From Escherichia phage vB_EcoM_PTE-Eco05: a stretch of 64,000 nt of DNA. A program made the position numbers and the translations under genes. Location: the sequence record PQ306573.1, one strand, 5' to 3'. The first letter of the stretch is position 1, and every line of letters starts with the position of its first letter. The notes beneath the pieces were generated by a model. That model had not been told where the DNA came from, searched no databases, and saw only the letters and a list, made by a program, of their open reading frames with translations. Positions 4,252-35,210 of the stretch are shown piece by piece.

Positions 4252-4744
4252 GTTTTTGACTAGCGAAATGAAGGTTAAGATCGCTGATACTGCTCGGTAC
4301 TCGTTGAAACAAGATCCAGGTCAAATAAAAGAAGACGTTGTTCGACGTTGTAAGGTTGCAGTCTTTGCAGAGTATGTAGTAGCAAATTGGCTAGACGGAT
4401 ATGTTAATAAAGGTAATGAAGACGTAGAAGACCCGTACACGTATGCATGGGACGTTTTAGCTCATCCTAAGTACTGTGGTCTACGCGTAGAAGTAAAGAC
4501 CCATCAGATGGATTCGAAATGGATTTCGGTTACCACAGGATACAGTGGTGATTATCCGGGTGGTAATGGAATCAATATAGGGCCCTTCTTGAACCATCGA
4601 GTCGCAGATTGCATTATTATATTAGATGTCAAAGAAACCTCACCTGACGTCTTCTCTTATTCTATAAAGTTCGTGGGAGACCATGAAGACCTAAAGAAAA
4701 TCGTCCGCAAGAGCAACTACAACGGGTGGTATCTTCATCTTTAA
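4187..4744 (+). CDS. denB: Putative endonuclease IV (DenB-like) by position and length
   Basis: 185 aa from ATG 4187 with AGAGG RBS; sits where denB lies after rIIB in T4; no motif verified. Confidence 0.4.
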   Translation: MVKTNLGLLRLKSLPTFILSNEFLTSEMKVKIADTARYSLKQDPGQIKEDVVRRCKVAVFAEYVVANWLDGYVNKGNEDVEDPYTYAWDVLAHPKYCGLRVEVKTHQMDSKWISVTTGYSGDYPGGNGINIGPFLNHRVADCIIILDVKETSPDVFSYSIKFVGDHEDLKKIVRKSNYNGWYLHL

Positions 4745-4756
4745 TTTCATAAAAGT

Positions 4757-4786
4757 GTTTACAACTAAGTAGGACTATGATATAGT
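4757..4786 (+). promoter_or_regulatory. T4-type early promoter
   Basis: GTTTAC-N18-TATAGT; inverted repeat AGGACTA/TAGTCCT straddles the -10. Confidence 0.55.
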
Positions 4787-4812
4787 AGTCCTATCTAAAA
4801 GAAGATAACATC

Positions 4813-5076
4813 ATGAAATTTAAATTTTTCTACGCAAAACATAAAGTAACAGGCGAATTTGTTTCAATGTGCAACACTGCAGATGACGAAGGGATGATTT
4901 ATACCCATTTGGGTCTATCTCATTGGGACTCGGACGTGCCTTATATGTCATCTGAAGCCGAAATAACTCGTTTAGTTAACGGACATATGAACGACCATTT
5001 TGGTATTATTCTTTCTAAAGACCTTAAAGAGGTTATCAACAAAGGATATATGGAACTCGCGGAAGTTGAGATATGA
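4813..5076 (+). CDS. Hypothetical early protein
   Basis: 87-aa ORF downstream of early promoter. Confidence 0.45.
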   Translation: MKFKFFYAKHKVTGEFVSMCNTADDEGMIYTHLGLSHWDSDVPYMSSEAEITRLVNGHMNDHFGIILSKDLKEVINKGYMELAEVEI

Positions 5077-5268
5077 GCTCTAAAATGTGGATAGGAATAT
5101 GGTTGCTTAGTATCCCAATGATTTGTATAATATTTTCAATTGTGTTGAGGTACTTATGAAAAATGCACTTCTTATTGTACTAAGAACAATTTGTGATGCG
5201 TGGTTTTACATCGCATGTTCGTTCACTGGAACATGGTTGGCTTTAACATATTTTAATGTAATTTAATT

Positions 5269-5298
5269 GTTTACAACAAGGTAGGATTATGGTATAGT
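5269..5298 (+). promoter_or_regulatory. T4-type early promoter
   Basis: GTTTAC-N18-TATAGT with inverted repeat GTAGGATTA/TAGTCCTAC. Confidence 0.55.
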
Positions 5299-5326
5299 AG
5301 TCCTACTGAAACATGAGGAACACAAA

Positions 5327-25305: not shown

Positions 25306-25893
25306 ATGCTTAAATTAGTATTCGCATGTGCTCCGACTAAAACAGTTGATGATAAACTGGAATATGCTTTTGGATTAGGTGATGGACTTCCATGGAAGCA
25401 TATCAAACAAGATATGAGTAACTTTGTTGCTCGCACTAAAAACACTGTAATGGTTATGGGTGCTAAGACATTTGCATCATTACCTCGTCTACTCCCAGAT
25501 CGTACTCATGTGGTTGTCACTGATATGGCCAGAGAACTGCCTAGGACCAAAACCAACGAACTTGCGCGTTTCTATATCACCCAATCTGAATTTATTACCT
25601 TGGTAATGGGTGGTGAAATTAACCTGTTTAGCACTGCAACTGACGTACCATTTAAACTTTCTACTGAACATGTTGATGTATCTGTTATTGGTGGCCCTGC
25701 TTTATTGAAACAAGCATTGCCTTATGCTGATGAAATCGTGATGACTAAAATCATTAAGAAATGTCGTGTTAATTCCGATGTTCAACTTGATAAAGATTTC
25801 GTCCAAGATATTATGCTTCAACGTTCTATGGTAGAATCTCATTACTACAGAATCGATGAACTCACCGAAATTACTGAGAGCGTTTATAAATGA
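25306..25893 (+). CDS. frd: Dihydrofolate reductase
   Basis: 195 aa; GLGDGLPW, VIGGPALL motifs; precedes td. Confidence 0.88.
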   Translation: MLKLVFACAPTKTVDDKLEYAFGLGDGLPWKHIKQDMSNFVARTKNTVMVMGAKTFASLPRLLPDRTHVVVTDMARELPRTKTNELARFYITQSEFITLVMGGEINLFSTATDVPFKLSTEHVDVSVIGGPALLKQALPYADEIVMTKIIKKCRVNSDVQLDKDFVQDIMLQRSMVESHYYRIDELTEITESVYK

Positions 25894-26438
25894 AACAATA
25901 CCAATACCTGATTAAAGATATCTTAGAAAATGGCTACGAAACAGACGACCGTACAGGTACAGGCACTATTGCCCTGTTCGGAACTAAATTGCGATGGGAT
26001 CTGACTAAAGGATTCCCTGCGGTAACAACTAAGAAATTAGCATGGAAAGCTTGTATTGCCGAGTTACTGTGGTTCATGTCTGGCTCTACCAATGTTAATG
26101 ATTTGCGTATTCGTACTCATGGTAGTCTTATTCAAGGTAAAACTATTTGGGACGACAACTATGAAAATCAGGCAAAAGACCTTGGATATCATAGCGGCGA
26201 ACTTGGTCCTATTTATGGTAAGCAATGGCGTGATTTTGGTGGTGTAGACCAATTGGTCAAAACTATCGACCGTATTAAAGCTCTTCCTAATGATCGTCGT
26301 CAAATAGTTTCTGCATGGAACCCGGCTGAAATTGACCAAATGGCTCTTCCTCCTTGTCATATGTTCTATCAATTTAATGTGCGTAATGGACATCTTGATT
26401 TACAATGGTACCAACGCAGTGTTGATGTTTTCTTAGGT
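25890..26438 (+). CDS. td: Thymidylate synthase, exon 1
   Basis: 183 codons ending ...QRSVDVFLG; in-frame TAA immediately follows at intron start; exon 1 + exon 2 = 286 aa. Confidence 0.88.
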
Positions 26439-27454
26439 TAATTTAGGCCTAGGTATAAGGTGACTTATACTTGTAATCTATCTAAACGGGGGACCTCTCT
26501 AGTAGACAATCCCGTGCTAAATTGTAGGACTACCCTTTAATAAATACTTCTATATAAAAAGAGGTGTTTATGAAAAGCGGAATTTATCAGATTAAAAACA
26601 CTTTAAACGGTAAAGTGTATGTTGGAAGTGCTAAAGATTTTGAGAAAAGATGGAAGAGGCGTTTTAAAGACCTTGAAAACGGTGTTCACTCTTCTATAAA
26701 ATTTCAAAGGTCTTTTAATAAACATGGTAATGTTTTTGAATGCTCTGTACTGGAAGAAATTCCATATGAGAAAGATTTGATTATTGAACGAGAAAATTTT
26801 TTGATTAAAGAGCTAAATTCTAAAATTAATGGATATAATATTGCTGATGCGTCTTTTGGCGATGTGCTTTCAAATCATCCATTAAAAGAAGAAATTGCTA
26901 AGAAACGAGCTGAAACTGTTAAAGCTAAGATGCTTAAGCTTGGTCCTGACGGTCGGAAAGCTCTTTATGGTAAACACGGAAGTAAAAATGGCCGATGGAA
27001 TCCAGAAAACCACAAGTTTTGTAAATGCGGTGTTCGCATACCATCTTCGGCCGATACTTGTGGAAAGTGCCGAAAACGTTCAGGTGAAAATAACCCGTTC
27101 TTTAATCACAAACATTCAGAAAAAACTAAAACTAAACTATCTGAAAAGATGAAAGGCAAAAAGCCAGCTAACATCAAAAAGATTTCATGCGATGGGATTA
27201 TTTTTGAATGTGCAGCCGATGCGGCTAGACATTTTGAAATTTCATCAGGATTAGTTACTTACCGTGTAAAATCTGATAAGTGGAATTGGTTCTACATAAA
27301 TGCCTAACGACTATCCCTTTAGGGAGTAGGGTCAAGTGACTCGAAACGATAGACAACTTGCTTTAACAAGTTGGAGATATAGTCTGCTCTGCATGGTGAC
27401 ATGCAGCTGGATATAATTCCGGGATAAGATTAACGACCTTATCTGAACATAATG
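26439..27454 (+). ncRNA. td group I self-splicing intron (1016 nt) carrying the I-TevI ORF
   Basis: Begins TAATT.AGGCCT.GGTATAAGGTGACTTATAC..., ends ...GAACATAATG before exon 2; length equals T4 td intron. Confidence 0.85.
26570..27307 (+). CDS. I-TevI: GIY-YIG homing endonuclease I-TevI
   Basis: 245 aa from ATG 26570; GIYQIKN...KVYVGSAKDFEKRW GIY-YIG motif; C-terminal DNA-binding region; inside td intron. Confidence 0.9.
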   Translation: MKSGIYQIKNTLNGKVYVGSAKDFEKRWKRRFKDLENGVHSSIKFQRSFNKHGNVFECSVLEEIPYEKDLIIERENFLIKELNSKINGYNIADASFGDVLSNHPLKEEIAKKRAETVKAKMLKLGPDGRKALYGKHGSKNGRWNPENHKFCKCGVRIPSSADTCGKCRKRSGENNPFFNHKHSEKTKTKLSEKMKGKKPANIKKISCDGIIFECAADAARHFEISSGLVTYRVKSDKWNWFYINA

Positions 27455-27766
27455 CTACCGTTCAACATTGCCTCGTACGCTGCCTTGACGCATATTGTAG
27501 CGAAGATGTGTAACCTTATCCCAGGTGATTTAGTGTTCTCAGGCGGCAACACGCATATCTACAGCAATCATGTAGAACAATGCAAAGAAGTTCTTCGTCG
27601 TGAACCTAAAGAGTTGTGTTCTCTTGAAATTAATTGGCCTAGTAATTTTGAGAATTGGCCTACAAAAATCCAAATGGACTGGGTTACTGGAACGATGACA
27701 CATTCTGATTTCGTTCTTAAAAATTACGAATCTCATCCAACTATCAAAGCTAAAATGGCGGTATAA
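27455..27766 (+). CDS. td: Thymidylate synthase, exon 2
   Basis: Frame resumes LPFNIASYAALTHIV... directly after intron-terminal G. Confidence 0.85.
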   Translation, partial: LPFNIASYAALTHIVAKMCNLIPGDLVFSGGNTHIYSNHVEQCKEVLRREPKELCSLEINWPSNFENWPTKIQMDWVTGTMTHSDFVLKNYESHPTIKAKMAV

Positions 27767-28021
27767 ATGATTTTACGTTTTATTAATTCATATGGCACCA
27801 CAATTTTTGAAATGAAAAATCCAAGTGAACTGGATATCCCTTCACCGAATAGTGAAATCACAGTTAAAGGTGAACGATTCATTTGTTATTCACATGAACG
27901 AATTTATGAATATCGTGAATTTTGTGGTGGTTACGGTATGGAAAAAGAACCATTGGTTTATTTCGATATCACGGTCTTGACACCTAAAGAATACGAAGAA
28001 ATTATTGCTGAGGATAATTAA
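27767..28021 (+). CDS. Hypothetical protein (nrdA.1 position)
   Basis: 84-aa ORF overlapping td stop (TAAATG). Confidence 0.45.
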   Translation: MILRFINSYGTTIFEMKNPSELDIPSPNSEITVKGERFICYSHERIYEYREFCGGYGMEKEPLVYFDITVLTPKEYEEIIAEDN

Positions 28022-28108
28022 CGCTTCAGTTTAAAAGTGTATAATAAATTAACGGGATAAATACTATCCCGTTTGGAGTAATGTCTATCAACCTATACTG
28101 AGGAATAT

Positions 28109-29533
28109 ATGCAAGTAACTAAGAGCAGTGGTGTATCCCAAAATTTTGATGCACAGAAAATTATTCAAGTCTTAACTTGGCAATGTGAAGGAACACAAAT
28201 TGACCCATATGAATTGTACGAAGAAATTAAGACCCATCTTGTCGACGGGATGAGCACCAAAGATATCCAGAAGATTTGTATTAAAGTTGCAGCTAACTCG
28301 ATTTCTGTCGAAGAACCTGATTATCAGTATGTCGCCGCCAAAGGGCTAATGTTTGCACTTCGTAAAGATGTATATGGGCAGTTTGAACCGCCTGCTTTTA
28401 TCGACCATATTTCTTATTGTGTTAATGAAGGCAAATATGACCCTGAGCTGTTGTCTAGATATTCTGCAGAAGAAATCATTTATCTTGATTCTCGGATTAA
28501 ACATGAGCGAGATTTTGACCTGACTTATGCTGGTGCTATGCAGCTTAAAGAAAAATACCTGGTTAAAGATAAAACAACTGGGAAGATTTATGAAACTCCA
28601 CAGTTTGCTATCATGGCTATCGGTATGGCCTTACACCAAGACGAAACTCATGACCGTTTGAAACATATTATTCGTTTTTATGATGCCGTTTCTACTCATC
28701 AAGTTTCATTGCCAACCCCAATTATGGCAGGTGCTCGTACTCCAACTCGCCAGTTCTCTAGTTGTGTAGTTATTGAAGCCGGTGATTCGTTAAAATCTAT
28801 TAACAAAACTTCAGCATCAATTATTGAATATATTTCTAAACGAGCTGGTATTGGTATCAACGTTGGTATGCTTCGTGCAGAAGGTTCTAAGATTGGTATG
28901 GGTGAAGTTCGACATACAGGTGTTATTCCATTTTGGAAACATTTCCAAACTGCAGTAAAATCTTGTTCTCAAGGTGGTATTCGTGGTGGTGCTGCTACAG
29001 CGTATTATCCGATGTGGCACTTAGAAGTAGAGAACCTATTAGTTCTGAAAAATAACAAAGGCGTGGATGAAAACCGTATTCGACATATGGACTACGGAAT
29101 TCAGATTAATGACCTCATGATGGAACGCCTTGGTAAAAATGATTATATTACTTTATTTAGCCCTCACGAAATGTCAGGCGAACTATACTACTCGTTCTTT
29201 GAAGATCAAGATAAATTCCGTGAGCTTTATGAGAAAGCTGAAAAAGACCCAACAATCAGAAAGAAAAGAATCAAAGCACTAGAACTCTTTGAATTGTTCA
29301 TGACTGAACGTTCTGGTACTGCTCGAATTTATCCACAGTTTGTTGATAACACGAATAACTACACTCCGTTTATTCGTGAAAAAGCTCCAATTCGTCAGAG
29401 TAACTTATGTTGTGAAATCGCTATTCCAACTAATGATGTGAATAGCCAACAAACCCGTTTAATCAAAATTAAGAAGTCGGATGTAGCTAAGTTTTATGAA
29501 GCTAATCCTGGCGGTATAATTCAAAGCAAATAA
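28109..29533 (+). CDS. nrdA: Ribonucleotide reductase large subunit, N-terminal piece (NrdA-a): ATP cone through NLCCEI active-site motif
   Basis: 474 aa; contains NLCCEIAIPT (E. coli C439/E441 equivalent) then a 28-aa tail and stop. Confidence 0.85.
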   Translation: MQVTKSSGVSQNFDAQKIIQVLTWQCEGTQIDPYELYEEIKTHLVDGMSTKDIQKICIKVAANSISVEEPDYQYVAAKGLMFALRKDVYGQFEPPAFIDHISYCVNEGKYDPELLSRYSAEEIIYLDSRIKHERDFDLTYAGAMQLKEKYLVKDKTTGKIYETPQFAIMAIGMALHQDETHDRLKHIIRFYDAVSTHQVSLPTPIMAGARTPTRQFSSCVVIEAGDSLKSINKTSASIIEYISKRAGIGINVGMLRAEGSKIGMGEVRHTGVIPFWKHFQTAVKSCSQGGIRGGAATAYYPMWHLEVENLLVLKNNKGVDENRIRHMDYGIQINDLMMERLGKNDYITLFSPHEMSGELYYSFFEDQDKFRELYEKAEKDPTIRKKRIKALELFELFMTERSGTARIYPQFVDNTNNYTPFIREKAPIRQSNLCCEIAIPTNDVNSQQTRLIKIKKSDVAKFYEANPGGIIQSK

Positions 29534-29578
29534 AGTACACAGACCGTTAATAAATAATCCATAACAAGAGGAAAAGTT

Positions 29579-30289
29579 ATGGATTATTCTAAAATTTACA
29601 ATAACCTTATTTCTAAAGCTAAGAATAGAAAATTAGATTGCTATACCGAATCACACCATATTATACCTCTGTGTATTGGTGGTTCTGATACAAAGGAAAA
29701 CCTGGTAGATTTGACACCAGAAGAGCATTACATAGCTCATCAATTATTAGTAAAGATATATCCAGATAATCATAAATTGATATTTGCCGCTAATATGATG
29801 TGTGTTTATTCTAAAGATAATATTGAACGAAAGAACACCAATAAACGCCATGGGTGGCTTAGAAGAAAATTGGCTATTTCTGTATCTGAAAATAATAAAG
29901 GCAAACCAGCTTGGAACAAAGGTATTCCTATGTCTCCAGAAGTTAAATCTCGACTTCAAACATCTTGGGTGTTTACATTTCCGGATGGTCATGAGGAAAT
30001 TCATCGAGGTCTTAACGAATTTTGTAAAGAGCATAATTTAAATCCATCTGCAATGTCAGCCGTTTGTAAAGGTAAACGGGCGCATCACAAAGGATTTAAG
30101 TGTAAGAAATTGGATAAGATTTCAGAGCTTGATAATTTAGTTTTCGTCAGTAAACCTCATCCAAAGGGATTAAAACCCCATAACTTAATTGCTGTAAAAA
30201 TAAACGGTATAGAATATCAATCAATACATCGAGCATCTAAAGCTTTAGGAATTACTAGAAAAAAGGTAGAAGAATTAAATGAATATTGA
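29579..30289 (+). CDS. Free-standing HNH homing endonuclease (MobE/Hef-like) inserted within nrdA
   Basis: 236 aa; HNH motif ESHHIIPLCIGGSDTKENLVDLTPEEHYIAH; C-terminal HTH-like IEYQSIHRASKALGITRKKV; own RBS AAGAGGA. Confidence 0.85.
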   Translation: MDYSKIYNNLISKAKNRKLDCYTESHHIIPLCIGGSDTKENLVDLTPEEHYIAHQLLVKIYPDNHKLIFAANMMCVYSKDNIERKNTNKRHGWLRRKLAISVSENNKGKPAWNKGIPMSPEVKSRLQTSWVFTFPDGHEEIHRGLNEFCKEHNLNPSAMSAVCKGKRAHHKGFKCKKLDKISELDNLVFVSKPHPKGLKPHNLIAVKINGIEYQSIHRASKALGITRKKVEELNEY

Positions 30290-31268
30290 TTATGAATTTG
30301 TAGATGAATTTTACGAAGATGATGAGTATACTACAATAAAAGTTATTGAAAACAAGGGAGAAGTGGGGCTTTGTACTCTCTCTGCATTCGTATTAGATAA
30401 ATTTGATTGGCAAGACCAAGATAAAATTAATGAACTTGCTGAAGTACAAGTACGTGCACTTGATAACCTGTTAGACTATCAAGATTATCCGGTTCCAGAA
30501 GCTTTAAAAGCTAAAAAGCGTCGTAATCTTGGTGTTGGTGTTACGAACTATGCTGCATGGTTAGCTTCTAACTTTGCTTCATATGAAGACGCTAACGATT
30601 TGACTCATGAATTGTTTGAGAGATTGCAATATGGCCTTATCAAAGCATCAATCAAACTCGCCAAAGAAAAAGGATGTTGCGAGTATTATTCAGACACTAA
30701 ATGGTCTAGAGGCGAATTACCTATCGACTGGTACAATAAAAAGATTGACCAAATCGCAGCCCCGAACTACGTCTGTGACTGGGAAGAACTTCGAGCTGAA
30801 CTCAAAGAACATGGAATTCGTAACTCAACGTTGTCTGCACTCATGCCTTGTGAGTCAAGCAGTCAAGTATCGAACTCTACAAACGGGATTGAGCCCCCAC
30901 GTGGTCCAGTAAGTATTAAAGAATCTAAAGAAGGCAACTTCCGACAGGTTGTTCCTAATATCGAACATAACATGAGTCTTTACGACTACGCGTGGAAACT
31001 TGCTAAGAAAGGTAATAAACCTTATTTGACCCAAGTTGCTATCATGTTGAAATGGGTGTGCCAATCTGCTTCTGCTAATACTTACTACGACCCTGCAGTA
31101 TTTGAGAAAGGTAAAGTGCCAATGTCAGTAATGCTTGACGATCTGCTTTACTTCTGGTACTTTGGCGGAAAAAACCTCTACTATCATAACACCCGTGATG
31201 GGTCAGGTACAGATGACTATGAATTAGAAACACCTAAAGCTGAAGATTGCTCTGCTTGTAAGCTTTAA
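30279..31268 (+). CDS. nrdA: Ribonucleotide reductase large subunit, C-terminal piece (NrdA-b)
   Basis: 329 aa; GLCTLSAF (E. coli C462 equivalent), C-terminal CSACKL redox tail; ATG embedded in HNH gene 3' end with AAGGTAG RBS. Confidence 0.85.
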   Translation: MNIDYEFVDEFYEDDEYTTIKVIENKGEVGLCTLSAFVLDKFDWQDQDKINELAEVQVRALDNLLDYQDYPVPEALKAKKRRNLGVGVTNYAAWLASNFASYEDANDLTHELFERLQYGLIKASIKLAKEKGCCEYYSDTKWSRGELPIDWYNKKIDQIAAPNYVCDWEELRAELKEHGIRNSTLSALMPCESSSQVSNSTNGIEPPRGPVSIKESKEGNFRQVVPNIEHNMSLYDYAWKLAKKGNKPYLTQVAIMLKWVCQSASANTYYDPAVFEKGKVPMSVMLDDLLYFWYFGGKNLYYHNTRDGSGTDDYELETPKAEDCSACKL

Positions 31269-31323
31269 GACTTTTGATTATAATTTACTCATGGATGAGT
31301 TAATAACTAAGTGAGAAAATATA

Positions 31324-31999
31324 ATGAGTACAGTTTTTAATACACAACAAGTCGATGTTTTGAACGAACCGATGTTCTTTGGTTCTGGTCTTGGTCTTGC
31401 ACGGTATGATATTCAGCGTCATAAAGTTTTTGAAGAACTTATAGAAAAATCCTTGTCATTTTTCTGGCGCCCCGAAGAGGTAAACTTAATGTTGGACTCT
31501 GCACAGTTCAATAAGCTTCCTCAGTTCCAACAGGACATCTTTACAAACAATCTTAAGTATCAATCATTATTGGATTCTATCCAAGGCAGGGCCCCATCTG
31601 CGGTACTTATGGCACTGCTTTCCGACCCTTCATTAGATACGTGGGTTGCAACATGGACATTCAGTGAAACTATTCACTCTCGTTCATATACTCATATTAT
31701 GCGAAATCTTTATACCGATCCATCCAAAGTATTTGATGAGATTGTATTAGACGAAGCAATCATGAAACGAGCTGAATCAATAGGTAAATATTACGATGAT
31801 GTTCTAGTCAAGACTCGTAATTGGGAAAATGCTAAAGAATTTGTAGAACTAGCTAAAGAATCTCCTGATGCCGACTTTCGTTTAAACCGAGCTATTAAAC
31901 AAGAAGCCGAAGCTAAACGTGCTTTAATGAAATCTCTTTACCTCTGTTTGCACGTTATTAATGCCTTAGAAGCTATTCGTTTTTATGTATCTTTTGCGT
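31324..31999 (+). CDS. nrdB: Ribonucleotide reductase small subunit, exon 1
   Basis: Ends ...EAIRFYVSFA + first nt of Cys codon; in-frame TAA at intron start. Confidence 0.85.
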
Positions 32000-33090
32000 A
32001 AAATGCGCCTTTAAACGGTAACGTTTATCGAAAACTCCTTTAATTGCTGGAAAGTCCTTTATAGGAAAACTAGCAGCCAAGGTTTTGCTTGCACCTTTAA
32101 TTAGTATAATATAAATATGATTATACTTTTAAGAGGATGCACAATTGAACTATAGAAAAATTTGGATAGATGCTAACGGACCTATACCTAAAGATTCTGA
32201 TGGAAGAACATACGAAATCCATCATAAAGACGGTAACCGTGAAAATAATGATTTAGATAATTTGATGTGCCTTTCTATACAGGAACATTATGATATACAT
32301 TTAGCTCAAAAAGATTACCAGGCTTGTCATGCTATAAAGCTTAGAATGAAATATTCTCCTGAAGAAATTTCTGAATTAGCTTCTAAAGCCGCAAAATCTA
32401 GAGAAATCCAGATTTTTAATATCCCTGAAGTACGAGCTAAAAATATTGCCTCTATTAAATCTAAGATAGAAAATGGTACATTTCATCTTTTAGACGGTGA
32501 AATACAGCGTAAATCTAATTTAAATAGAGTTGCATTAGGTATACATAATTTTCAACAAGCTGAGCATATTGCAAAAGTTAAAGAACGCAATATTGCAGCT
32601 ATAAAAGAAGGTACTCATGTATTTTGCGGTGGTAAAATGCAGTCAGAAACTCAATCAAAACGGGTAAATGACGGTTCACATCATTTCTTGTCAGAAGACC
32701 ATAAGAAAAGAACATCAGCAAAAACATTAGAAATGGTTAAGAACGGAACCCATCCTGCACAAAAAGAAATCACATGTGATTTCTGCGGTCACATTGGTAA
32801 AGGTCCTGGATTTTATCTAAAACATAATGACAGATGTAAATTAAATCCAAATAGAATTCAATTGAATTGTCCATATTGTGATAAGAAAGATTTATCACCA
32901 TCAACATATAAACGATGGCACGGCGACAATTGCAAAGCAAGGTTCAACGACTAGTCTTCGGACGTAGGGTCAAGCGACTCGAAATGGGGAGAATCCCTCT
33001 GGGATTGTGATATAGTCTGGTCTGCATAGTAATATGTAGCAGTTCATAAGAGAACGGGTTGAGAATTAGCGAGCTCAATCGAACATAACG
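32000..33090 (+). ncRNA. nrdB group I intron (~1091 nt) carrying full-length I-TevIII
   Basis: Exons 31999/33091 rejoin to give FAC-TFNFHKNMEIMEGNAK; intron 3' end GAACATAACG resembles the td intron 3' end; boundaries inferred. Confidence 0.75.
32145..32954 (+). CDS. I-TevIII: HNH-family homing endonuclease I-TevIII (full length, 269 aa)
   Basis: TTG start 7 nt after AAGAGGA RBS; EIHHKDGNRENNDLDNLMCLSIQEH HNH motif; C-terminal Cys-rich zinc finger; inside nrdB intron. Confidence 0.8.
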   Translation: MNYRKIWIDANGPIPKDSDGRTYEIHHKDGNRENNDLDNLMCLSIQEHYDIHLAQKDYQACHAIKLRMKYSPEEISELASKAAKSREIQIFNIPEVRAKNIASIKSKIENGTFHLLDGEIQRKSNLNRVALGIHNFQQAEHIAKVKERNIAAIKEGTHVFCGGKMQSETQSKRVNDGSHHFLSEDHKKRTSAKTLEMVKNGTHPAQKEITCDFCGHIGKGPGFYLKHNDRCKLNPNRIQLNCPYCDKKDLSPSTYKRWHGDNCKARFND

Positions 33091-33593
33091 GTACCTTTAA
33101 CTTCCATAAGAACATGGAAATTATGGAAGGTAATGCAAAGATTATGAAGTTCATTGCTCGTGACGAACAACTCCATCTCAAGGGTACTCAGTACATTATC
33201 CGTCAACTTCAATCTGGTACTGATGGCGATGAGTGGGTTCAAATTGCTAAAGAATGTGAACAAGAAGCAGTTGACATTTTTATGGAAGTAAATCGTCAAG
33301 AGAAGGAATGGGCTGCACACCTCTTTAAAGACGGTACATGTCCAGGTATCAATACGCAGAGTATGTGTGCTTTTGTTGATTACTTGACTGTGTCTCGTAT
33401 GAAACAGTGTGGTTTGCCATGCCCAATCACTGATGCTCCGACCAAGCATCCGTATCCTTGGATTCGTGAATATCTTAACTCTGATTTAGTTCAAGCAGCT
33501 CCTCAGGAAGTTGAAATCAGTTCTTATCTTGTTGCACAAATTGATAATGATGTGGACCAAAATGTAATCAATTCATACAAAAAATATTTCTAA
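33091..33593 (+). CDS. nrdB: Ribonucleotide reductase small subunit, exon 2
   Basis: MEGNAKIMKFIARDEQLHL; exon 1 + exon 2 ~392 aa. Confidence 0.8.
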
Positions 33594-33597
33594 GGAC

Positions 33598-33611
33598 GGG
33601 ACTTCGGTCCC
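33598..33611 (+). terminator. UUCG-tetraloop hairpin downstream of nrdB (weak U tract)
   Basis: GGGAC-TTCG-GTCCC. Confidence 0.45.
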
Positions 33612-33619
33612 ACTTTATT

Positions 33620-34030
33620 ATGAAAGATATTGCCGCCGAATATTCCTTTATTAAATATATAGAATTGGAGCTATTAGAAGATGCAACAATTAAAACAGTT
33701 GATGTCCCTAATAAGAAAAATGTCATATATGCTATTGCTATAGATGACGAACTTGTGTATATTGGTAAAACCAAGAATTTAAAGAAACGCATTAACTATT
33801 ATCGAACAGCCATAAATCGAAAAGACCAGACTTCAGATTCAAGAAAATCACTTATGATTTTGGATGCCTTAATGCAAGGCAAAAAGGTTGAATTCTGGGC
33901 CCGCCAATGTTTTGACCTTTCAGTCACCAACGAACTTGGTTCAATGACCATCGCAACAATGGACCTTGAAGAACCACTTTTTATCAAAAAGTTCAACCCG
34001 CCTTGGAATATCCAACATAAGAAAAAGTAG
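33620..34030 (+). CDS. denA: Endonuclease II (DenA), GIY-YIG-like
   Basis: 136 aa; VYIGKTKNLKKRINYY motif; T4 DenA length and position. Confidence 0.85.
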   Translation: MKDIAAEYSFIKYIELELLEDATIKTVDVPNKKNVIYAIAIDDELVYIGKTKNLKKRINYYRTAINRKDQTSDSRKSLMILDALMQGKKVEFWARQCFDLSVTNELGSMTIATMDLEEPLFIKKFNPPWNIQHKKK

Positions 34031-34059
34031 TTTACATACCACAAGGATTGTGGTACAAT
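34030..34059 (+). promoter_or_regulatory. T4-type early promoter
   Basis: GTTTAC-N18-TACAAT; inverted repeat CCACAA/TTGTGG in spacer. Confidence 0.5.
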
Positions 34060-34076
34060 TTAAAAAAACTAACTGA

Positions 34077-35210
<1,134 letters not shown>

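Follow-up and report, generated by a model that had tools for sequence, protein, structure and literature searches.

The ribonucleotide reductase (RNR) operon of Escherichia phage vB_EcoM_PTE-Eco05 (sequence record PQ306573.1) was analyzed within a 64,000-nucleotide (nt) stretch of the phage genome, which is referred to as the window from here on, and the gene for the large RNR subunit, nrdA, was found there in two pieces. These are the open reading frames (ORFs) nrdA-a (28109..29533, 474 amino acids (aa)) and nrdA-b (30279..31268, 329 aa), with an ORF coding for an HNH endonuclease of the “MobE_split” type (29579..30289, 236 aa) lying between them; a program-made ORF list reproduces exactly the coordinates that an initial annotation, prepared from the sequence alone, had given for this arrangement, and all three frames, as well as the other parts of the split locus delimited below, are on the plus strand. 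A 45-nt spacer separates the nrdA-a stop codon from the HNH start, the HNH ORF, whose stop codon is at 30287-30289, runs 11 nt into nrdA-b (ATG at 30279), an overlap that had been noted initially, and the 55-nt gap between nrdA-b and nrdB is devoid of listed ORFs. The nrdAB operon occupies the T4-typical td-nrdA-nrdB-denA position, and no further nrdA copy was found in the 64-kb window. The backbone, which the initial annotation took for T4-like, is not T4 itself but that of an RB69-like phage (Mosigvirus) whose NrdA measures 751 aa, the nearest record being JM17 (98.3% identity over the locus).

The arrangement is also less rare than had been implied, as it is carried by about 34 of the roughly 820 nrdA-matching phage records (coliphages as well as Yersinia, Salmonella and Shigella phages), and, because about 34 deposited phage records have the same structure, the split is no assembly artefact. 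Three of the coliphages concerned, F2, vB_EcoM-ZQ3 and HY01, are listed as “MobE_split” in the supplement of a 2022 preprint, which otherwise devotes to such phages a single sentence, marked as unpublished, and a supplementary alignment (bioRxiv 10.1101/2022.08.31.505936). Along most of its length, the insert of the window matches those of F2, ZQ3, HY01 and about 30 others at 95-100% identity. F2 (L008) is filed as a Tequatrovirus, but the flanking nrdA sequence shares 93-98% identity with that of the Mosigvirus-type window.

Domains and catalytic residues are divided between the two nrdA pieces. By Pfam, NrdA-a comprises the ATP-cone, the all-alpha domain and positions 1-221 of the barrel, and NrdA-b comprises positions 219-523, whereas alignment to the E. 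coli NrdA runs up to residue 453-455 for the former and spans residues 454-751 for the latter, so that the break point corresponds to E. coli residues 453/454, within the loop joining two adjacent barrel strands. NrdA-a retains C219, N432, C434 and E436 (E. coli C225, N437, C439 and E441), and NrdA-b retains C32 (C462), Y301 and Y302 (Y730 and Y731) and C324 and C327 (C754 and C759); none of the catalytic residues is missing. As the initial annotation had recognized, the split runs between the catalytic cysteines: NLCCE is found close to the NrdA-a end (residues 432-436) and LCTLS close to the NrdA-b start (residues 31-35), which puts Cys434 (E. coli C439) and Cys32 (C462) on different chains.

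The exact extent of the insert was set by alignment with intact Mosigvirus and T4 nrdA. Relative to MZ234025, a relative 98-99% identical to the window that encodes an intact 751-aa NrdA, the locus differs by a single 916-nt insertion (29444..30359) replacing 12 nt (the GPDA codons), with no target duplication of the kind the initial annotation had proposed to look for. This whole insert, the MobE_split cassette, comprises the tail-a codons, the spacer, the HNH gene and the tail-b codons, thereby extending NrdA-a by 29 codons plus a stop and NrdA-b by a start codon plus 27 codons, and its GC content is 32%, as opposed to 39% in the nrdA core. Outside of it lie the nrdA-a core (28109..29443, codons 1-445; ATP-cone, all-alpha domain and N-terminal barrel half), whose product shares 99.6% identity with residues 1-445 of the unsplit MZ234025 NrdA, and the nrdA-b core (30360..31268; C-terminal barrel half), whose product is 99.0% identical to residues 449-751.

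The endonuclease is a 27.1 kDa protein with an isoelectric point (pI) of 9.5 and HNH catalytic residues H27, N41 and H50, for which Pfam reports an HNH domain and an I-HmuI NUMOD-like DNA-binding region in the C-terminal half. Its ATG is preceded, 6 bases upstream, by AAGAGGA, which bears out the initially annotated ribosome-binding site. The closest well-characterized counterpart is MobE of Aeromonas phage Aeh1, which was recovered by the HNH protein search at E = 1.8e-45 and aligns over its full length (236 vs 237 aa; 44.6% identity over 233 aligned residues), while the best non-self matches of a reciprocal tblastn search started from Aeh1 MobE were the coliphage copies. Similarity to T4 MobE, at 46% identity, is confined to the N-terminal 133 aa (56% of the protein). 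The middle of the HNH gene (29901-30150, the DNA-binding region) exists as two alleles that are only about 72% identical, both of which occur in Mosigvirus-type and Tequatrovirus-type backbones with the remainder of the cassette being 97-100% identical, a pattern that points to recombination between cassette variants. A protein nearly identical to the HNH protein of the window is filed under “Bacillus cereus” (WP_100771429.1), a label that is probably a contaminant attribution.

The peptides that the cassette appends to the two NrdA chains are short and oppositely charged. Tail-a (29444..29533; 29 codons, SQQTRLIKIKKSDVAKFYEANPGGIIQSK, followed by TAA) is basic, with a net charge of +4 and a pI of 10.0, whereas tail-b (30279..30359; 27 codons, MNIDYEFVDEFYEDDEYTTIKVIENKG) is acidic, with a net charge of -7 and a pI of 4.05. 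Neither has a counterpart in the intact nrdA alleles aligned, which have only GPDA or SPDA at that position, and tail-a and tail-b do not resemble each other significantly (p of about 0.10 for the window and 0.70 for Aeh1), so the proposal of the initial annotation that SDVAKFYEA and EFVDEFYED are the same nrdA segment in two diverged versions does not hold. A word-indexed protein search with the 71-aa NrdA-b N-terminus returned a single fragment.

Both of the tails do, however, have recognizable homologues in Aeh1, whose “genes-in-pieces” RNR was reportedly treated by Friedrich in 2007. The nrdA-a/mobE/nrdA-b locus of that phage has been characterized under the same designation (Crona 2010, PMC3045599): the pieces are made as separate polypeptides, the tails are left unprocessed on the mature proteins and are basic (pI 10.4) and acidic (pI 3.8), their loss lowers activity about 2000-fold via impaired dimerisation of the a/b heterodimer, and, as of 2010, no database matches to them were available (PMC3045599). 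Tail-a pairs with its Aeh1 counterpart (LIKIKKSDVAKF vs LFKVKKSEVDKF) at an alignment score of 42, and tail-b with its own (YEFVDEFYEDDEYTT vs HERIYEVYEDEEYTT) at a score of 63, against 19.6±3.8 and 25.2±5.0, respectively, for composition-preserving shuffles (n = 5000 per tail), none of which (0/5000 in either case) reached the observed value.

The remaining anatomy agrees closely as well. In Aeh1 (41.5-44.6 kb; L006 21489-24628, minus strand), the insertion falls into the same loop, C439 belonging to piece a and C462 to piece b; NrdA-a, HNH protein and NrdA-b measure 473, 237 and 323 aa (474, 236 and 329 aa in the window), the spacer before the HNH gene is 46 nt long (45 nt in the window), the HNH/nrdA-b overlap amounts to 14 nt (11 nt in the window), and a full-length MobE homologue, homologous tails of the same polarity and a hairpin at the endonuclease start are common to both. 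The initial annotation had invoked Aeh1 as a precedent, and rightly so; judging from the MobE identity and the tail alignments, the insert and the mobE cassette of Aeh1 are homologous and reside at the same loop, a relationship closer than mere analogy. The differences concern the backbone (an Aeromonas Cinqassovirus vs the E. coli Mosigvirus of the window, in which nrdAB sits in the T4-typical position), the kind of knowledge available (tail function and the lack of splicing were shown biochemically in Aeh1, while the window version is known from its sequence) and the spread of the coliphage version between genera, which the comparison of cassette and flanks demonstrates.

Full-length relatives of the HNH protein were also encountered in metagenomes, where they form a graded series of 50-67% identity, and all of those that were looked up (8/8) are located within an nrdA that is broken at this very site. 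Together with the coliphage copies and Aeh1, these 8 metagenomic loci make up the ten lineages compared here. Throughout them, the charge polarity of the tails is the same (10/10; +3 to +7 for the NrdA-a tail and -7 to -14 for the NrdA-b tail), the motif L.K[IV][KR]K.[DE][IV]..F is kept in tail-a, and ED.EYTT is invariant in tail-b. As the synonymous sites of the tails are saturated across lineages while the ratio of nonsynonymous to synonymous substitution rates (dN/dS) stays at 0.05-0.3 (0.05-0.28 for tail-b), the tails must be translated and under selection; the HNH gene shows a dN/dS of 0.12-0.29 between lineages. HNH divergence tracks NrdA divergence (r = 0.91), from which it follows that the association of the endonuclease with nrdA is old. 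Some of the metagenomic contigs carrying the cassette further widen the range of backbones: one is 98-99% identical to Klebsiella T4-like phages with an intact nrdA, the match ending at the junction, a second is 82% identical to Erwinia phages, and a third shows at most 76% identity to anything in the phage collection.

A gene interrupted in this manner might be suspected of being a decaying one, with the phage relying on the host RNR or on its own anaerobic NrdD, and the initial annotation had named such decay as an outcome that would speak against a functional split enzyme. The T4 nrdA is, indeed, non-essential in nrd+ hosts, and the GenBank record of HY01 (L009) leaves both nrdA pieces unannotated, yet such decay is very unlikely here. 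Both of the pieces are full length and 99.0-99.6% identical at the protein level to the intact relative, the catalytic residues are complete, and the split form has persisted in the ten lineages, whose NrdA sequences have diverged to about 55-60% identity, with no frame disruption. The dN/dS of the split cores (window vs Tequatrovirus split alleles) is 0.03-0.06 (0.04 for nrdA-a and 0.03-0.06 for nrdA-b), matching the 0.05 seen between the intact Mosigvirus and T4 nrdA, and the Aeh1 split enzyme is fully active. The pseudogene reading was thus rejected on dN/dS and the intact catalytic residues, and purifying selection acts on the nrdA cores, the tails and the HNH gene alike.

Still less probable is that the tails are the halves of a (possibly degenerate) split intein, trans-splicing of which would restore a single NrdA chain, even though a split-intein nrdA with an endonuclease gene between the halves is known, at least as cited within PMC3045599 (Dassa 2009), many metagenomic NrdA C-terminal fragments open with an intein C-half (...ILVHN|C) at C439, and opposite charges on the two halves are typical of split inteins. 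At 29 and 27 aa, however, the tails are short for inteins, no Hint/intein match to either the ORFs or the isolated tails was given by Pfam at E <= 10 (an intein signature being another finding that the initial annotation would have counted against itself), and the tail-b/extein junction reads ...NKG|EVG, the HN followed by a Cys/Ser/Thr nucleophile being present in 0/10 lineages. Genuine inteins do occur in nrdA, but at another site, C439, where clear CLSGDS...VHN|C inteins are seen in L016 and P0122, and L016 bears an intein and the MobE cassette side by side; the mature Aeh1 proteins, moreover, keep their tails. With Pfam blank and the splice residues missing at the junctions, both the intein and the split intein were rejected.

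The locus of L016 also deserves mention in its own right, as its nrdA-a (metagenomic, 1107-2951) holds a 141-aa mini-intein (CLSGDS...ILVHN|C) exactly at the catalytic C439, with the MobE cassette following about 10 codons downstream, meaning that two mobile elements share one active-site stretch. The NrdA C-terminal fragments mentioned above (345-382 aa, metagenomic; P0122, P0130, P0138, P0167, P0182, P0209, P0218, P0256 and P0258) begin with a split-intein C-half of ~32 aa (...VYDI.V....NFFAN.ILVHN) fused to C439, and look like the “fractured gene” type with a split site unlike that of the MobE cassette.

A group I intron with the HNH gene as its ORF, splicing of which would join the nrdA pieces as in td and nrdB, is the least credible of these alternatives and very improbable, notwithstanding that RNR genes are classic intron targets and that genuine endonuclease-bearing group I introns are found within 4 kb on either side. 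An Rfam search of 25500-34500 (E <= 1) returned RF00028 at td and nrdB only, these introns serving as positive controls, and no match within 28109-31268; the room left for a ribozyme is 45 nt before the HNH start and, in line with the initial annotation, nothing after the HNH ORF, and the Aeh1 homologue yields separate, tail-retaining polypeptides. The sequence flanking the HNH gene is, furthermore, conserved at the amino-acid level in the ten lineages (dN/dS 0.05-0.3) and, since this conservation coexists with saturated synonymous sites, represents translated sequence and not a ribozyme; the intron was rejected on the blank Rfam result in the nrdA gap. A canonical T4 MobE was likewise rejected, with the ORF lying inside nrdA and the similarity to T4 MobE limited to the N-terminal 56%.

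That the MobE_split cassette is still moving is indicated by its identities across genera and by its junctions. When the window is compared to the Tequatrovirus copies (e11/2, Manna and 236Ecol005PP), the flanking nrdA is merely 75-85% identical, whereas tail-a, spacer, HNH gene and tail-b are 98-100% identical. Site by site, the window follows the Mosigvirus sequence up to 29431, and the codon at the left junction is the T4-type AGC; the stretch between 30360 and about 30395 resembles T4 (positions 30372-30395 agreeing with T4 and e11/2 and not with the intact Mosigvirus allele), and from 30401 onwards the Mosigvirus character returns. The 36-41 nt directly downstream of the cassette (30360..30400) therefore appear as a donor-derived, T4-like exon tract, 97.6% identical to e11/2 and 70.7% identical to the intact Mosigvirus, and, because such a short donor exon tract flanks the cassette in a Mosigvirus backbone, transfer from a Tequatrovirus-like donor can be deduced. 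Taken together, these patterns indicate recent homing of the cassette between genera. At the right junction, 5/9 bases are unlike both of the intact alleles (ATT GGA/GGT TTG/TTA changed to GTG GGG CTT), as would be expected if the endonuclease target were located near that junction and the cassette-bearing alleles were immune to cleavage. The endonuclease probably would cut the cassette-free nrdA of co-infecting phages, and repair would then copy the whole cassette, tails included, along with a short stretch of the donor exon.

The start of the endonuclease gene is embedded in a conserved RNA hairpin (29553..29588; arms 29553-29565 and 29576-29588, loop AAGAGGAAAA), the perfect 13-base-pair stem of which has a folding energy of -13.8 kcal/mol (z = -4.1). 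The 3' arm includes the HNH AUG (29579-29581) and the first codons, and the loop includes the Shine-Dalgarno sequence. The hairpin is common to 7 lineages, in which 96.6% of the cells are paired and 3 of the 13 pairs show compensatory changes on both sides; its covariation score was reached by 0/500 shuffles, and slid controls were at most 47% paired. Overlapping the 5' arm is a late-promoter-like motif, AATAAATA (29549..29556), which matches the T4 consensus TATAAATA at 7/8 positions and occurs only 3 times on the plus strand of the window; ATAAATA, the core of TATAAATA, is invariant in the 7 lineages, 3 of which have the exact TATAAATA. Late promoters located within translation-blocking hairpins are documented for I-TevI, I-TevII, I-TevIII, segB and Aeh1 mobE (PMC2988022), and AATAAATA might accordingly be a late promoter: in read-through transcripts made early or in the middle of infection, the hairpin burying the AUG would block endonuclease translation, whereas transcripts initiated from the ATAAATA inside the 5' arm would miss that arm, which would allow late expression of the endonuclease. 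The start region of nrdA-b is, by folding, unstructured, and a purine-rich Shine-Dalgarno-like element precedes it in every lineage, so that the ribosome-binding site that had initially been ascribed to nrdA-b is there, albeit a weak one in the window.

All things considered, the cassette of the window is very probably a coliphage member of the mobile element that splits the Aeh1 nrdA, with the reductase being reassembled from two chains, the element being spread by homing and the endonuclease being under hairpin control. By analogy with Aeh1, the operon mRNA would stay unspliced, and NrdA-a (54 kDa) and NrdA-b (38 kDa) would be translated separately and then associate, rebuilding an active site to which one chain would contribute C219 and C434 and the other one C32, while the basic tail-a and the acidic tail-b supplied by the cassette would be needed for an active (a/b)2 dimer with NrdB2. 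If the Aeh1 biochemistry carries over, the insertion would be phenotypically neutral as a result of this tail-aided reassembly. Several points weigh against such an interpretation: the promoter-like motif AATAAATA of the window is one mismatch off the consensus, the lineage of the window has a weak ribosome-binding site for nrdA-b (AAGGTAGAAG), and no solved structure of a split RNR was found. In addition, the hairpin buries the AUG here, while in Aeh1 and in one further lineage it is the Shine-Dalgarno sequence that is sequestered, and the regulatory details may, because of this, differ from those of Aeh1.

Other phage systems resemble this one in part. The T4 mobE has a related N-terminal HNH domain and also resides within the RNR operon, but it is intergenic between nrdA and nrdB, interrupts no gene and has an unrelated C-terminal half. 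Genes 39/60 of T4 come closer in architecture, as there the mobA HNH cassette splits an essential enzyme gene, leaving one product with a C-terminal and the other with an N-terminal extension of opposite charge; the gene that is split and the clade of the endonuclease are, however, different ones, and the mobA cassette also has the gene 60 translational bypass element, to which the window offers no counterpart. The “fractured” split-intein nrdA (Dassa 2009), td/I-TevI and nrdB/I-TevIII all have mobile endonuclease genes in the catalytic-site regions of nucleotide-metabolism genes with the damage neutralised, albeit by protein or RNA splicing; in the cassette of the window, which has neither a ribozyme nor a Hint domain, function would, on the Aeh1 model, be restored by non-covalent assembly. 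It is likely that tail-a, the endonuclease and tail-b constitute a self-contained mobile module equipped with protein-level “antidote” tails and a late-only switch, which would represent a third way, beside group I introns and inteins, to live in the catalytic core of an essential gene, and which homes among T4-like genera (the backbones in question being Tequatrovirus, Mosigvirus, Klebsiella-phage-like, Erwinia-phage-like and Aeh1).

The kind of arrangement found in Aeh1 is already well characterized, and deposited genomes annotate both of the nrdA pieces and the endonuclease; what, to our knowledge, could not be found in the literature searched are the exact junctions, the cross-genus transfer and its co-conversion tract, the tail consensus of the ten lineages, the analysis of selection and the covarying hairpin/promoter switch. 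These points refine a known story and do not open a new kind. Nevertheless, the Aeh1 split reductase had previously been taken for a one-off transposition accident, whereas the same cassette, tails included, recurs, and by the look of its junctions still moves, in ordinary E. coli T4-like phages, and its conservation across lineages lends support to the idea that the endonuclease gene brings the tails along as a portable means of repairing the enzyme it fragments. With E. coli as the host and T4/RB69 as cassette-free partners, a tractable system for studying homing, cleavage sites (by mapping) and the tail mechanism is at hand and, should the module reading be true, both tail assembly and homing would be directly testable in a standard genetic system. 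Two short charged peptides restoring the active dimer of a radical enzyme would also be of interest for split-protein engineering.

Related loci show other ways in which nrdA and its surroundings have been invaded or fragmented. In the Klebsiella-phage-like L014, the nrdA of which is split, an extra 213-aa ORF (4669-5310) lies between nrdA-b and nrdB, i.e., in the canonical mobE position, and its sole recorded Pfam match is a faint NUMOD3. In L022 (1072-4020), nrdA is split in the MobE-cassette loop, but the tails are unrelated and the intervening 146-aa ORF has no Pfam match, which may be an independent fragmentation of the tail type.

In the window itself, the neighbouring genes are interrupted as well. 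Within the td gene (26564-27766, exon 2 being 27452-27766), Rfam finds RF00028 at 27176-27406 (36 bits), and the ORF of this group I intron (26564-27307) encodes a full I-TevI-type GIY-YIG endonuclease of 247 aa with zinc-finger and DNA-binding domains. A second group I intron (RF00028 at 32799-33039, 34 bits) interrupts nrdB (31324-33593), and its ORF (32145-32954) encodes a full-length HNH_3 protein of 269 aa, whereas the T4 counterpart is a truncated I-TevIII only. Three endonuclease-bearing elements, in td, nrdA and nrdB, are thus found inside 7 kb.

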